Sequence record: KT184314.1 | Length of the DNA stretch: 64,000 nt | Origin: Enterobacteria phage KhF2 | Direction: 5' to 3' (one strand) | Shown: positions 705-63,748 of the stretch, piece after piece | Numbering within the stretch: the stretch's first letter is position 1 | Layout: the number at the start of each line of letters is the position of its first letter | The notes under the pieces: model-generated | Database searches by the model: none | What the model saw: only the letters and a program-made list of their open reading frames with translations | What the model was told of the DNA's origin: nothing | Made by a program: the position numbers and the translations under genes

Positions 705-780
705 TGGTAGTCCAGTGGGATTTGAACCCTCTTCTCATGTTTTTCAGACACGCGCTTTAACCATATAAGCTACTTGGACT
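705..780 (-). tRNA. tRNA-Phe (anticodon GAA)
   Basis: Hand-folded cloverleaf; T-loop TTCAAAT; anticodon loop CTGAAAA; CCA encoded. Confidence 0.6.
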
Positions 781-786
781 ATAAAT

Positions 787-862
787 TGGGGTGACCTACG
801 GGATTTGAACCCGTATAGACCATGTTCACAGCATGGGTCATTACCATTTATGATAAGGCCAC
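787..862 (-). tRNA. tRNA-His (anticodon GTG)
   Basis: Anticodon stem CCATG/CATGG with loop CTGTGAA; T-arm CGGG-TTCAAAT-CCCG; CCA encoded. Confidence 0.6.
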
Positions 863-893
863 ATTTAAGGACTCTCGTAAGAATCCTTAGAAG

Positions 894-969
894 TGGCAGC
901 GGCATAAGGATTTGAACCTTAATAGGACAGCTTCAGAGACTGTTGCATTGCCAGTTATGCTATACCGCT
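894..969 (-). tRNA. tRNA-Gln (anticodon CTG)
   Basis: Acceptor AGCGGTA/TGCCGCT, D-stem GCAT/ATGC, anticodon loop CTCTGAA, G73, CCA encoded. Confidence 0.6.
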
Positions 970-974
970 AAATT

Positions 975-1054
975 TGGTACTCCATATCGGATTCGAACCG
1001 ATACATAACACAGATTTTAAGTCTGGCCTCTCTGCCAATTGGAGTAATGGAGCA
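975..1054 (-). tRNA. tRNA-like, anticodon probably TAA (Leu by anticodon), atypical short variable loop
   Basis: T-arm ATCGG-TTCGAAT-CCGAT and CCA present; anticodon loop CTTAAAA on a 4 bp stem; D-arm weak. Confidence 0.35.
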
Positions 1055-1055
1055 T

Positions 1056-1131
1056 TGGCGGGGGATGTTGGAATTGAACCAACTTCTTCGATTTCAAAGA
1101 CCGAGGTTTTAACCTTGTAAACTAATCCCCT
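1056..1131 (-). tRNA. tRNA-Gln (anticodon TTG)
   Basis: Acceptor AGGGGAT/ATCCCCC with G73; D-stem GTTT/AAAC; anticodon stem TCGGT/ATCGA with loop CTTTGAA. Confidence 0.55.
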
Positions 1132-31260: not shown

Positions 31261-31288
31261 AATACTTTCCTCTTAGTTTACTGTTAAA

Positions 31289-31465
31289 TTACTTGTTAAA
31301 CATTTTACCAGAACCACCACACATAGGGCAACAACCTGCTCTTGTATAACCTTCCCCATTACAGTAGTCACATTTTTTGTGCTCTGCATAGTACTTACAA
31401 AGAAGGTAAACAAACACTGCTACGCCACCAAGTGACAGTAAAATTTCTATCCAATATGCTTGCAT
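31289..31465 (-). CDS. small membrane-anchored protein with DnaJ-type zinc finger (58 aa, below the ORF-track cutoff)
   Basis: Hand translation MQAYWIEILLSLGGVAVFVYLLCKYY...CDYCNGEGY...CPMCGGSG; two CxxCxGxG motifs. Confidence 0.4.
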   Translation of the reverse strand: MQAYWIEILLSLGGVAVFVYLLCKYYAEHKKCDYCNGEGYTRAGCCPMCGGSGKMFNK

Positions 31466-31782
31466 GACTCACCTCTCATATTCTTGTAAAGGATAAAGCT
31501 TCTGTCATGGACGATACTTGTAGATACTGCAAAGTTACTTTCAAGCATCTGTTTATTTGGATTGTAGAAGCTTTCTTTAAACTCGTCAAGTGCAAATTGG
31601 TGATTGTCTGGAAGACCTTTTACACAGACCTTTATTGTGATTGCTGCTGCAATCTTACCAGTCAGTTCTTCTTTAGCTGCTACTAAAATTTTGTTAAGGA
31701 ACTTATGACCATTTTCAGGTTTCTTGATGTTCTCCCAACGTTCCTCTAAGACGATGTTGATGTTCATCTCTTTGATTTTCAT
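31447..31782 (-). CDS. hypothetical protein
   Basis: ORF track. Confidence 0.45.
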   Translation of the reverse strand: MKIKEMNINIVLEERWENIKKPENGHKFLNKILVAAKEELTGKIAAAITIKVCVKGLPDNHQFALDEFKESFYNPNKQMLESNFAVSTSIVHDRSFILYKNMRGESCKHIG

Positions 31783-31802
31783 AATCTTCTCCAGAAATTA
31801 AA

Positions 31803-31828
31803 AAGGCTCCCGTAGGAGCCTCTTATCA
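31803..31828 (-). terminator. rho-independent terminator
   Basis: Minus-strand GGCTCCTACGGGAGCC followed by TTTTTAATTT. Confidence 0.6.
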
Positions 31829-31835
31829 TATACTT

Positions 31836-33617
31836 TTAAAGCTGCTTGTCAATATTATTTCGAATATCACCAAGAGTTGTGTATCCGAACTGCTCAGAGT
31901 CACTAAAGACTAGACGTAAAGCACAAGCTGGATGTTCAAGTGCATCTGCAAAGCTCTGGAACCCATAGCCATCTACAGCTTTCAGATTTTCACCATCCCA
32001 CATAGGTGCTACACCACCAAAAGCAGACTTCTTAACACCACTATCTGTTTTAGGGTCTTTTGCAAGCATAATCTCTTTACCACCAATGCTTGCAAGGGTT
32101 GCTTTGACAGCAAATGCAAAGGTGTCACGAGTCATGTACTGGTAAGTGTAAGAACCTACACCAAACACTACGTTAGAGCTTGCAAAACCCATTTCATACA
32201 AACGCTTCAGTATTTCATTTGCACGTTCCAACGTGATAGAGTCGCCATAAATAAGTCCAATATGCTCATCCAGTACCTTAAAACCTTTAGAGTTAATAGT
32301 TCCTCCAAAGATGTTATACAGTGTCTTGATAGCTCCATCAATCTCAGCTACAGGACGTGTTACAACGTTTGCAGAACCAACCATATAAGCATTTTTCAAC
32401 ATCACTGTATCAGCAACTTCAAAGTCTTCTCTGTCAACAACCATCTCGTAGCCTTCTGACAGTAGCCATCCAGCAATACCATAGTTGATGTTCTCAAGCT
32501 TCATGTTCAGAACAGCATTCAACATTGTGTCACTGGCTTCCAGCTTGCTTAGGTGCTCGTAATAAGCCTTCTTAGCACATTCTAAGTGGATTGCTTTATA
32601 ACCTGTGACAATATGTACAGGGTCTCCAGAGTCAGGGCGAATTACCAGTTTGCCATCACGTCCCATAATTTCTTTACGAAGTGCTGGTAAGATTTCTGAC
32701 ACAGTTCTCCAGAAGTTATAAGTATCTGAAACAATGCTTGCAATACCTGTTGGGTAAGTTTCTGTTAAGAAACGACGGAAGGTTTGTAACTCACCTTTAA
32801 AGCGTCTTTCTTCTTCAATCAACTCATTACCACCTTCCCAAGCAATGTTTGCACACATTACAGAGTGCTCAGTGGCTGGTACAGAACTACCAATATCAGA
32901 GATTGGGTAGGACTGTCCATAGATTCGTTTAGCCGTGTATACAGCAGGGAAGCTATCAGTCCCTTTAAAGCTGGTTAAGTGACCTACAGCGTTAAATGCG
33001 TCATCAGTAAAGCCGGACATACCACGCATAGCAAAATCATGGCACTGATAAGGTAAATGTAAGTCATTGTCACAAGTAAGGTCAGCCCACTTCTTACAGA
33101 TGCGTTTGTAATGCAATGCAATAGTTGCAATGGTGCAAGCCTTCCAAATTTCAGCAGAGAAAGCATCTTCCAGATAACCTGCTACCCAATGAAAACCTGA
33201 AACAGTGTTCTGAAAGACAATCATCGGGACACGCATTGGAACAACTGTGCCTTCTTCTACAGCGTATACTTCAACTGGTAGATAACCTAAGTCGTGAAGT
33301 GCTTCCCAATGCTCTCGACCGATAGCATCTTTACCCAGAACACCATTCATGACTTCTAAGATTTCATCAATGGCTTCTTTTTTATCACGTTCAAAGAAAG
33401 TGGCATTCCAGTGGTCTATCAAGTAATCTTTAACAAAACGTTGAATACCAAAAGCCACTACACCGTCAATTGCTAAGGGGCTGTTAAACCATTTGTCGCT
33501 ACGTGGTGTCAGATTGAACATCAAGTACTCTGTTGCGCTAGGATACTGGTAAACATGACCAGATTTGTAAGCATCTGCATTTAAACCTGCTGGTACTGCA
33601 TAAAGTGATTTAGTCAT
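31836..33617 (-). CDS. nicotinamide phosphoribosyltransferase (NAMPT/NadV)-like protein
   Basis: 593 aa; recalled similarity to the NadV/NAMPT family (not motif-verified); paired with a PRPP-synthetase-like gene. Confidence 0.6.
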   Translation of the reverse strand: MTKSLYAVPAGLNADAYKSGHVYQYPSATEYLMFNLTPRSDKWFNSPLAIDGVVAFGIQRFVKDYLIDHWNATFFERDKKEAIDEILEVMNGVLGKDAIGREHWEALHDLGYLPVEVYAVEEGTVVPMRVPMIVFQNTVSGFHWVAGYLEDAFSAEIWKACTIATIALHYKRICKKWADLTCDNDLHLPYQCHDFAMRGMSGFTDDAFNAVGHLTSFKGTDSFPAVYTAKRIYGQSYPISDIGSSVPATEHSVMCANIAWEGGNELIEEERRFKGELQTFRRFLTETYPTGIASIVSDTYNFWRTVSEILPALRKEIMGRDGKLVIRPDSGDPVHIVTGYKAIHLECAKKAYYEHLSKLEASDTMLNAVLNMKLENINYGIAGWLLSEGYEMVVDREDFEVADTVMLKNAYMVGSANVVTRPVAEIDGAIKTLYNIFGGTINSKGFKVLDEHIGLIYGDSITLERANEILKRLYEMGFASSNVVFGVGSYTYQYMTRDTFAFAVKATLASIGGKEIMLAKDPKTDSGVKKSAFGGVAPMWDGENLKAVDGYGFQSFADALEHPACALRLVFSDSEQFGYTTLGDIRNNIDKQL

Positions 33618-33662
33618 CTTTTAATCTCTCTCAAAATGGGGCTTGGAAGCCCCTATAAAGTT

Positions 33663-34559
33663 TTAATCAAGGTTTGCTACAGTAACTTGGCTATAATGTG
33701 TTAAGCCACGGTCTTTAGCTTCCCCTAAAGAGTTTGTAGTGTAGATATGGTCAATACCATTGTCAAGCAAGTTTTCAACATCTTTAGAGAAAATACCATG
33801 AGTTACATAGAGTTCCACACGTTTTGCACCTGCTTCACGAAGATGTTTGGCTGCTTCTATGAAGGTTCGACCTCCATCACAAATATCATCCAGAATCATG
33901 ACAGTTTTATCTGTCAAATCAACATCGTCAAGGATTCGCATACCAGTAATTTCACCAGTCTTAAGGTTACGCACCTTAGACATTGTGATGTATGGTTTAT
34001 CCACCTCTTTAGCAGTCTCTGCAATCTTCTTAGCAGCACCTGCATCTGGGGCTACTAAGTAATCAATCAGTGGGTCATTTGCGTAGTGAACTGCAATCTC
34101 CTTTTGAGGAATACTCTGGAAGCAGTTAAACAGGTTATCTGGAACGTAACTGTGAGGGTCAACTGCACAGACTGCACCAAATCCCATTGCATTTACCTGT
34201 TTAGCAAAAACCTTTAAAGCTGCTGCGTCGCCTTTAAACATGTGACGGTCATAACGTGCATTTGGTAAGTAGTAAAAGATGACAGTCTTTAAAGCATAAT
34301 CATGAGGAATTAAATCATCAATTGCTTCTTTAGCAAGTGCCACAGCAAACAATGTATCCTTATCATAACCTTTTACAATCATAATCACATTGTTGATGGA
34401 TGATGCTGCATAAGCAGTGAAATCAACAAACTCTGGCGAAAAGTGTCCACCAATCTCACCAGAAGGAAATTGGATGATGTTAAACTCTTCTTCATGAGTT
34501 CCTTTAGTTGGTGAATGAACTGTAACACGGATAGATGTTTTCATAGTTTTCTCTCTCAA
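33663..34559 (-). CDS. ribose-phosphate pyrophosphokinase (PRPP synthetase)-like protein
   Basis: PRPP-binding signature VMILDDICDGGRT; 298 aa. Confidence 0.6.
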   Translation of the reverse strand: MREKTMKTSIRVTVHSPTKGTHEEEFNIIQFPSGEIGGHFSPEFVDFTAYAASSINNVIMIVKGYDKDTLFAVALAKEAIDDLIPHDYALKTVIFYYLPNARYDRHMFKGDAAALKVFAKQVNAMGFGAVCAVDPHSYVPDNLFNCFQSIPQKEIAVHYANDPLIDYLVAPDAGAAKKIAETAKEVDKPYITMSKVRNLKTGEITGMRILDDVDLTDKTVMILDDICDGGRTFIEAAKHLREAGAKRVELYVTHGIFSKDVENLLDNGIDHIYTTNSLGEAKDRGLTHYSQVTVANLD

Positions 34560-63742: not shown

Positions 63743-63748
63743 CTTTAT

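Follow-up and report, generated by a model that had tools for sequence, protein, structure and literature searches.

A 58-amino acid protein of Felix O1-like phages with a predicted membrane anchor and a putative single-zinc CxxCxGxG knuckle

A short ATG to TAA open reading frame (ORF) is located directly upstream of the rIIA homologue in the 64,000-nucleotide stretch of the Enterobacteria phage KhF2 genome analysed here (KT184314.1; hereafter the window). Its translated product (58 aa; MQAYWIEILLSLGGVAVFVYLLCKYYAEHKKCDYCNGEGYTRAGCCPMCGGSGKMFNK) is the homologue of Felix O1 gp131, an already catalogued, uncharacterised phage gene product, which can now be described from its amino acid sequence and a structural model as a putative membrane-anchored single-zinc CxxCxGxG knuckle, of the kind seen in DnaJ-like zinc-finger proteins that lack a J domain. 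We propose that gp131 is a bitopic inner-membrane mini-protein whose cytoplasmic zinc knuckle would serve as a tethered protein-binding module, a reading to which we give about an even chance of being correct. The ORF, its N-terminal hydrophobic helix and both CxxCxGxG motifs had been read directly from the nucleotide sequence in a first-pass annotation, and all are present as described there. The location of the ORF between rIIA and the NAD-salvage genes nadV and prs was likewise given correctly. The coordinates of these and associated features are collected in Table 1.

Table 1. Features of the gp131 locus and further sites discussed in the text, with positions in the window
Feature	Position	Strand	Basis or remark
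Coding sequence of the 58-aa protein, stop codon included	31289..31465	minus	ATG to TAA ORF; homologue of Felix O1 ORF131/gp131, PHROG 3931
Shine-Dalgarno-like sequence GAGAGGTGAG	31468..31477	minus	Purine-rich; upstream of the ATG; read from the sequence
Predicted transmembrane helix, codons 6-25, IEILLSLGGVAVFVYLLCKY	31391..31450	minus	Hydrophobicity, AlphaFold, family conservation
First CxxCxGxG motif, CDYCNGEG, residues 32-39 (C32, C35, G37, G39)	31349..31372	minus	
Second CxxCxGxG motif, CPMCGGSG, residues 46-53 (C46, C49, G51, G53)	31307..31330	minus	
A6 homopolymer run	31373..31378		
Alternative-frame 46-aa ORF	31273..31413		Annotated in one GenBank record (Pr103Blw_00130)
rIIA homologue, 788 aa	28894..31260	minus	PHROG 612 RIIA, E = 3.9e-189; starts 28 nt past the stop of the 58-aa ORF
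ORF130 homologue, 111 aa	31447..31782	minus	PHROG 4262 (function not assigned); upstream of the 58-aa ORF
GC-rich terminator-like hairpin with T-run	31801..31824	minus	Directly follows the promoter-like site; prediction
Sigma-70-like promoter TTGACA-16-TATGAT	31825..31852	minus	Consensus scan, 11/12 matches; prediction
nadV	31836..33617		NAD salvage
prs	33663..34559		NAD salvage
Homologue of CPT_Moogle54	63748..63999		89% identical

The 58-amino acid ORF is a gene under purifying selection

The window belongs to a Felixounavirus; the 1.4-kb segment surrounding the ORF shares 99.7% identity with Escherichia phage ECML-1, and at least 80% of this segment is covered by 182 phage records. The order of the genes nadV, ORF130, the 58-aa ORF and rIIA is the same as in Felix O1, EcoM2 and ECML-1. 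The window protein shares 98% identity with Felix O1 ORF131/gp131 (NP_945023.1), which carries the annotation 'hypothetical membrane protein', and 100% identity with the product of an annotated ECML-1 CDS (WCD42903.1), and it matches PHROG 3931 across its full length (E = 4.9e-33; residues 1-58 against profile positions 1-59 of 59). Most of the approximately 210 related phage records annotate the ORF. It can thus not be considered unannotated, as it was in the first-pass annotation, having been present in the databases since the original Felix O1 record; it was overlooked at first reading because of a 60-aa cutoff and for no other reason. Names given to it in other records include 'membrane protein', 'putative membrane protein', 'heat shock protein' (EcoM2) and, wrongly, 'baseplate distal hub subunit'. 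A literature search found no mention of the zinc-knuckle nature of gp131 or PHROG 3931, and gave nothing specific on a characterised phage membrane CxxCxGxG protein or on Felixounavirus transcriptomics. As such, a structural label for PHROG 3931, namely a predicted anchor with one Cys4 knuckle, of either anti-TRAP or half-DnaJ type, would be a useful addition, correcting both 'heat shock protein' and 'baseplate distal hub subunit' and weakening an older suggestion, discussed below, that gp131 is a candidate holin.

Substitutions were analysed in 26 copies of the gene from Felix O1-type phages, obtained from GenBank records and IMG/VR contigs. These comprise 22 distinct DNA sequences, with differences at only a few positions of the protein. 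Variable sites among the 26 Felixounavirus copies are found at the first, second and third codon positions in 8, 5 and 29 cases, respectively (third positions: 29/42), while the pooled pairwise pN/pS is 0.089 in the frame of the ORF, against 1.98 and 0.97 in the other two frames. The low in-frame pN/pS and the bias towards third positions show that the ORF is a real gene under purifying selection. Furthermore, the GAGG core of the Shine-Dalgarno-like GAGAGGTGAG is situated 6 nt before the ATG, and the last 19 nt of ORF130 overlap the start of the ORF; the N-terminus, ribosome binding site and 19-nt overlap are all conserved, the overlap being shared with Felix O1, EcoM2 and Moogle.

The very small size of the ORF, and the frameshifted versions found in a few public records (P0003-P0007), could be taken to indicate a chance open frame or a non-functional remnant between ORF130 and rIIA. 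This is effectively refuted by the pN/pS value and the strong third-position bias, while the motif is kept down to 39% identity across five phage lineages and the ribosome binding site and ORF130 overlap are conserved. The frameshifts, moreover, are located at homopolymers, the A6 run and a G4 run, where sequencing errors are expected, and we consider the probability that the ORF is not functional to be negligible. Programmed frameshifting was considered for the 63-aa variants that arise at these runs, but as they occur in few records only they are most likely sequencing errors. The alternative-frame 46-aa ORF listed in Table 1 was also discarded, its frame having a pN/pS of approximately 1-2.

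The second CxxCxGxG motif begins 14 residues past the first. The pattern C..C.G.G is found three times when the 64-kb window is translated in all six frames, compared to a mean of 0.14 in 200 shuffles, and the 58-aa ORF is the single site in the window at which it is paired. The occurrence of the pattern in the ORF therefore exceeds chance.

Relatives were sought by two word-index searches and by one exhaustive HMMER search covering 1.8 billion representatives. Only 18-21 clusters were recovered, comprising the true family and unrelated proteins that share the repeat. Homologues were found exclusively in the Ounavirinae and RB49-like phages, namely Felixounavirus, Mooglevirus (~50% identity), Erwinia Kolesnikvirus, Pectobacterium phage Arno18 and the RB49-like Krischvirus of the Straboviridae (~42% identity; reciprocal best hits). 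All family members are 52-60 aa in length and consist of an N-terminal hydrophobic helix, a short linker and a zinc-knuckle module (C-x2-C-x-G-x-G-x4-5-G-x-C-x2-C-x-G-x-G), and this architecture of anchor plus knuckle is conserved throughout the family. In the alignment, whose members are 39-53% identical overall, residues C32, C35, G37, G39, G44, C46, C49, G51 and G53 are invariant, and the two CxxC pairs are spaced by 14 residues in nine of the eleven members and by 15 in the remaining two. The additional cysteines C23 and C45 are not invariant; C23 is variable, and C45 is replaced by Ile in Arno18 and by Pro in P0026.

Several other proteins carry the repeat or part of it. HNH proteins with five to seven tandem modules are unrelated to gp131 and have the repeat alone in common with it. 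The same module also follows the signal peptide of a secreted archaeal PGF-CTERM-type protein (P0025), otherwise unrelated to gp131, and is as such not restricted to the cytoplasm. Weak tblastn matches in Synechococcus, Pseudomonas, Prevotella Lak, Rhizobium and Vibrio phages were rejected, as they cover the knuckle only. That in the Pseudomonas Pbunavirus is located inside a larger protein (gp73; 323 aa) and that in Vibrio phage K280 is a generic CxxC ribbon, and neither is a whole-protein homologue.

Genomic context and expression

The 19-nt overlap makes translational coupling of ORF130 and the 58-aa ORF likely. The ORF130 product belongs to no Pfam family and has close relatives in only about ten clusters. 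Its AlphaFold model (pLDDT 69; pTM 0.62) gives weak matches to IF3-C-like beta-alpha-beta folds (E >= 0.012; TM 0.4-0.47), which are uninformative. By analogy with the nrdH neighbour in RB49, it was considered as a thioredoxin-fold partner of gp131, but it has neither a CxxC motif nor a match of that kind. Searches of defence and anti-defence libraries (PADLOC) gave no match for either the 58-aa ORF or ORF130.

A predicted sigma-70-like promoter and a terminator-like hairpin are both found between nadV (end 31836) and ORF130 (start 31782), and probably mark the boundary of a transcription unit between these two genes. As they intervene between the 58-aa ORF and nadV, the ORF is grouped with ORF130 and rIIA/rIIB rather than with the NAD genes, and the link to the NAD module drawn in the first-pass annotation is not upheld. 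RT-PCR in Felix O1 showed that the transcripts of ORF130, rIIA and nadV peak at 25 min, as part of the 'middle' class, while ORF131 is absent from Table 3 of that study (PMC3185647). gp131 would thus probably be produced in the pre-late phase of infection, along with ORF130 and rIIA/rIIB and under the control of a host-type promoter; we infer its co-expression with rIIA.

The order of small ORF, rIIA and rIIB is maintained in Felixounavirus, Mooglevirus and Kolesnikvirus, and in Arno18 across the genome ends, such that rIIA is immediately preceded by a gp131 homologue in all Ounavirinae lineages examined. This linkage may, however, simply follow from the fact that Ounavirinae genomes are collinear in general. 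The homologue of RB49-like phages lies far from rIIA; it overlaps the stop codon of the glutaredoxin gene nrdH and is followed by 55.2.

The context of the gene also bears on the suggestion that gp131 serves Felix O1-like phages as a holin, an antiholin or a lysis-timing factor. Whichard et al. (2010), in their description of the Felix O1 genome, listed gp131 among five possible holins, together with gp79, gp116, gp118 and gp119 (PMC3185647). As a small membrane protein with a Lys-rich C-terminus, the 58-aa protein loosely agrees with the holin criteria of one transmembrane domain and a charged C-terminus, and its gene lies directly upstream of rIIA/rIIB, which carry the database label 'lysis inhibitors'. 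The gene is, however, part of a pre-late unit that also contains nucleotide-metabolism genes and rII and is preceded by a host-type promoter. In phage Moogle, furthermore, the label 'putative holin' was given by the annotators to CPT_Moogle54, located at the end of the tail-fibre unit and with a homologue in the window (Table 1), while the gp131 homologue was left as hypothetical. To our knowledge, a conserved zinc knuckle is not a feature of holins. In addition, T4-type phages carry the holin gene t, and RB49, a T4 relative in the Straboviridae, nevertheless also has a gp131 homologue. A role as holin or in the timing of lysis is as such highly improbable.

Predicted membrane anchor and putative zinc knuckle

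The segment I6-Y25 is strongly hydrophobic (best 17-residue Kyte-Doolittle mean: 2.28), the AlphaFold model comprises one helix (residues 4-28) followed by short beta-hairpins, at moderate confidence (mean pLDDT 69.8), and all family members retain a hydrophobic segment at the N-terminus. These features support the predicted membrane anchor reported in the first-pass annotation. A cleavable signal peptide was rejected, as the N-region has no positive charge, and so was a lipoprotein or spanin, there being no lipobox; Y-L-L precedes C23, a residue that is not conserved.

The flank N-terminal to the helix lacks Lys and Arg in ten of the eleven members and usually contains an acidic residue, while Lys or Arg directly follows the helix in nine of the eleven. 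On this distribution of charges, an N-out/C-in topology with the Cys4 site in the cytoplasm is probable, the charge argument being a weak one. The reducing environment of the cytoplasm is where a Cys4 zinc site would be expected.

With the opposite orientation (N-in/C-out signal-anchor), the Cys-rich C-terminal domain would be periplasmic and its cysteines would form disulfides rather than bind zinc, and the protein would act at the envelope, for example in superinfection exclusion or on a periplasmic or outer-leaflet partner. This would be consistent with the ten residues after the helix of Moogle-type members, which are net acidic (+1/-3), and with Arno18, which has Lys4 on the N side of the helix and an acidic C-flank. 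It would also be in line with the number of cysteines, five to seven in each protein and often with an additional Cys45, which exceeds the need of one zinc site, and with the occurrence of the module behind the signal peptide of P0025. The small early membrane proteins Imm and Sp of T4-type phages, furthermore, act at the envelope. The positive charges usual for an N-in flank are, however, missing in ten of the eleven members and are instead found after the helix in nine, the extra cysteines C45 and C23 are not conserved, and the four invariant cysteines reproduce exactly the zinc-ligand pattern of DnaJ and anti-TRAP. We therefore consider a periplasmic knuckle rather unlikely, albeit with some real chance of being correct, and retain the cytoplasmic orientation in what follows.

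The knuckle is related to those of DnaJ and anti-TRAP. The most significant match of the family profile is to the cysteine-rich domain of DnaJ (PDB 1EXK; E = 4.9e-7), in two stretches, followed by human DNAJA3 (2CTT; E = 4e-4) and anti-TRAP (3LCZ; E = 0.01). The stretch aligned with anti-TRAP is of equal length in both (residues 30-55 against 10-35), and the gp131 family and anti-TRAP thus have the same Cys spacing. The window protein matches the Pfam DnaJ_CXXCXGXG domain (PF00684) with 15.3 bits (E = 0.024), below the gathering score of 32.7, and only at profile positions 41-65 of 65, corresponding to the last two of the four repeats. A weak PF00684 match is seen in all nine aligned family members, the best E-value of 5.8e-5 implying a score below the threshold. 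The Pfam domain of anti-TRAP (PF15777) is matched with E = 1.5 by the window protein, which is not significant, and with E = 0.03 by the best member.

A Foldseek comparison of the model with the PDB ranks three anti-TRAP structures first (rmsd 1.2-1.8 A over 27-32 residues; probability 0.85-0.91) and DnaJ 1EXK after them; the gp131 model has no C-terminal helix. Given the small size of the domain, the Foldseek E-values of 0.5-1 do not reach significance on their own, although they are in agreement with the sequence result. In structural terms, the modelled knuckle resembles the single-zinc knuckle of anti-TRAP more than it does the DnaJ cysteine-rich domain. The four motifs of DnaJ form two zinc centres, by pairing of motifs 1+4 and 2+3, as seen in the 1EXK structure. 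With only two motifs, gp131 would have a single Cys4 zinc site shared by both, as in anti-TRAP, and we infer from the sequence and model that C32, C35, C46 and C49 bind one Zn2+.

The first-pass description of the protein as 'DnaJ-type' thus holds at the level of the motif, as shown by the 1EXK match and the weak PF00684 matches in all nine members, but not in the sense of a DnaJ/Hsp40 chaperone. There are two CxxCxGxG repeats rather than four, the G/F region and substrate-binding domains are missing, the PF00684 score is below the gathering score, and no match of the 58-aa protein to the J domain (PF00226) was found at E <= 10.

A DnaJ-like chaperone element could nevertheless take other forms, for instance that of a membrane-bound holdase or thiol-disulfide oxidoreductase, or it could imitate zinc centre II of DnaJ in engaging DnaK at the membrane. 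The sequences closest to the knuckle are those of DnaJ cysteine-rich domains, the protein is called 'heat shock protein' in one GenBank record, and plant DnaJ-like zinc-finger proteins without a J domain are said to have Hsp70-independent chaperone-like activity (PMC5915565). The best argument is provided by the RB49-like homologue, whose overlap with the nrdH stop codon suggests coupled expression with a redox protein. In the Ounavirinae, however, there is no adjacent gene for a redox partner. The protein, without J and substrate-binding domains, has just half of a cysteine-rich domain, and its 27-residue knuckle offers very little surface for a holdase. A chaperone element of this kind is as such clearly improbable.

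Proposed function and comparison with known systems

In the mechanism we favour, residues ~6-25 of gp131 would form a single uncleaved transmembrane anchor, with the short acidic N-terminus most likely in the periplasm and the C-terminal ~33 residues most likely in the cytoplasm. The two CxxCxGxG motifs would fold back together as two beta-knuckles that coordinate one Zn2+ via the four invariant cysteines. A catalytic or J-domain function is discounted because the protein is too small, and gp131 would most likely be a protein-binding module tethered to the membrane, an adaptor or inhibitor that holds or blocks its partner on the cytoplasmic side of the inner membrane. Speculatively, candidate partners are RIIA/RIIB or, by analogy with the plant protein FIP, a membrane-proximal host machine such as FtsH. 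The RII proteins are membrane-associated, and their function is described as poorly understood in the literature on Felix O1-type phages (PMC4837284). The more far-reaching possibility that the family represents a new class of phage effectors, 50-60-aa membrane-tethered zinc knuckles that anchor RIIA/RIIB or modulate an FtsH-like host machine, is distinctly unlikely.

Should the knuckle indeed tether or inhibit RIIA/RIIB, FtsH or another membrane-proximal protein, it would provide a handle on the rII biology of Felix O1-type phages, which are widely used in Salmonella and E. coli biocontrol. If partner binding holds true, a very small and easily engineered membrane-targeted binding module would also be gained.

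Among known systems, the closest predicted fold is that of anti-TRAP and the closest architecture, by analogy, that of the plant protein FIP. Both are precedents for small knuckles whose action consists of binding alone. Anti-TRAP (RtpA) of Bacillus (PF15777; PDB 2BX9, 3LCZ and 3LD0) is a protein of ~53 aa with a single Cys4 knuckle whose two CxxC pairs are 14 residues apart, as in gp131. It is a protein-binding inhibitor, described by the depositors of its structure as an antagonist of TRAP-RNA interactions. Anti-TRAP is, however, soluble and has a C-terminal oligomerisation helix, whereas gp131 has an N-terminal membrane anchor instead, and TRAP is not known from enterobacteria. The DnaJ cysteine-rich domain (PF00684; 1EXK) shares the CxxCxGxG consensus of gp131, often in the form CPxCxGSG, but DnaJ combines four repeats and two zinc centres with a J domain, a G/F region and C-terminal domains, while gp131 has two repeats and none of these additional parts.

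The FtsH5-interacting protein FIP (At5g02160) consists of a membrane anchor and a C-terminal C4 finger with two CXXCXGXG repeats, without a J domain; it binds the membrane protease FtsH5, and its finger is predicted to face the stroma (PMC5915565). This is the architecture of gp131, the stromal side being equivalent to the cytoplasm, but the match is an architectural one only. FIP is a thylakoid protein of eukaryotes that bears a transit peptide and is said to occur in land plants only, and no land-plant proteins were found among the 21 matches of the representative search with gp131; binding of FtsH by gp131 would as such be an analogy only. A phage precedent for a reduced DnaJ domain is found in the HMO-2011-type marine phages, where a partial DnaJ central domain with exactly two CXXCXGXG repeats is incorporated into the DNA polymerase (PMC9038755). 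In these phages the repeats form an internal insertion in a large soluble enzyme, whereas gp131 is a free-standing mini-protein with a predicted membrane anchor.

Frameshifted versions and database names of gp131

A few public records, namely those of phiWec177, NJ12, GE_vB_B3 and some metagenomic contigs, contain 63-aa or 41-aa frameshifted versions of gp131, the Felix O1 ORF131 family to which the 58-aa minus-strand ORF of the window belongs, with their C-termini read in the overlapping alternative frame. The frameshift sites are homopolymer runs on the minus strand (A6 at 31373..31378 and GGGG at ~31354..31357), and on this ground sequencing errors seem a better account of the frameshifts than a biological cause. 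Homologues have also received divergent names in the databases. The label 'baseplate distal hub subunit/protein' is attached to the CDS at the gp131-homologue position, or to its neighbour, in LC519489 (SP22), MW006474 and MW006475, while the homologue in PQ818761 (EcoM2) is named 'heat shock protein'. Both labels appear to be over-propagated automatic names.

Tandem-repeat proteins with the same module and a holin candidate

An unusual repeat architecture is observed in two large metagenomic proteins (P0011 and P0012). After an N-terminal HNH-like region, a ~40-residue unit holding a CPxCxGxG-x-CPxCxGxG module of the same type as that of gp131 is repeated five to seven times in tandem.

As regards the reading of gp131 as a holin, a stronger candidate for this function is the homologue of CPT_Moogle54 in the window (Table). 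CPT_Moogle54, of Citrobacter phage Moogle, is annotated as a 'putative holin'. It has a TM segment at its N-terminus, its long C-terminal region is rich in charged and polar residues, and its gene closes the tail-fibre unit.

Table. Positions of the promoter-like site, the nadV-prs gap and the holin candidate in the window
Feature	Position	Strand	Details
Near-consensus sigma-70 promoter match and adjoining terminator-like hairpin	31801..31852	minus	TTGACA-16-TATGAT
nadV-prs gap	33618..33662	minus	nadV 31836..33617; prs 33663..34559
CPT_Moogle54 homologue	63748..63999	minus	89% identity over 84 aa; cut by window end

Gene neighbourhood in the window and related phages

The hairpin next to the sigma-70 match consists of GGCTCC-TACG-GGAGCC followed by T5, and the first bases of a transcript initiated at the start predicted from this match would fall within it. 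This hairpin is absent from the terminator table of the Felix O1 paper as far as entry t124, and a text search found no entries for t129-t131.

Several Felixounavirus genomes (Pr103Blw, ULIM3, FSL SP-107, Z31 and LF110P4) carry an insertion of ~350 nt between nadV and ORF130, the upstream neighbour of the gp131 homologue, which codes for an additional 114-aa hypothetical protein (719..1063 in the related locus L039); the window, where the corresponding site lies at ~31783..31835, lacks this insertion. In Erwinia Kolesnikvirus, the second gene upstream of the gp131 homologue codes for a ProQ/FinO-family RNA-binding protein (gp085 of Erwinia phage vEam_S_24, L034 2170..2631; Pfam E=7.7e-19), and no gene of this family is found at the corresponding position in the window. 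Finally, an HNH homing endonuclease gene is located between the PRPP synthetase gene (prs) and nadV in Felix O1, Moogle and a metagenomic relative (L036), whereas this interval in the window is only 45 nt long, which makes the endonuclease gene a presence/absence polymorphism.
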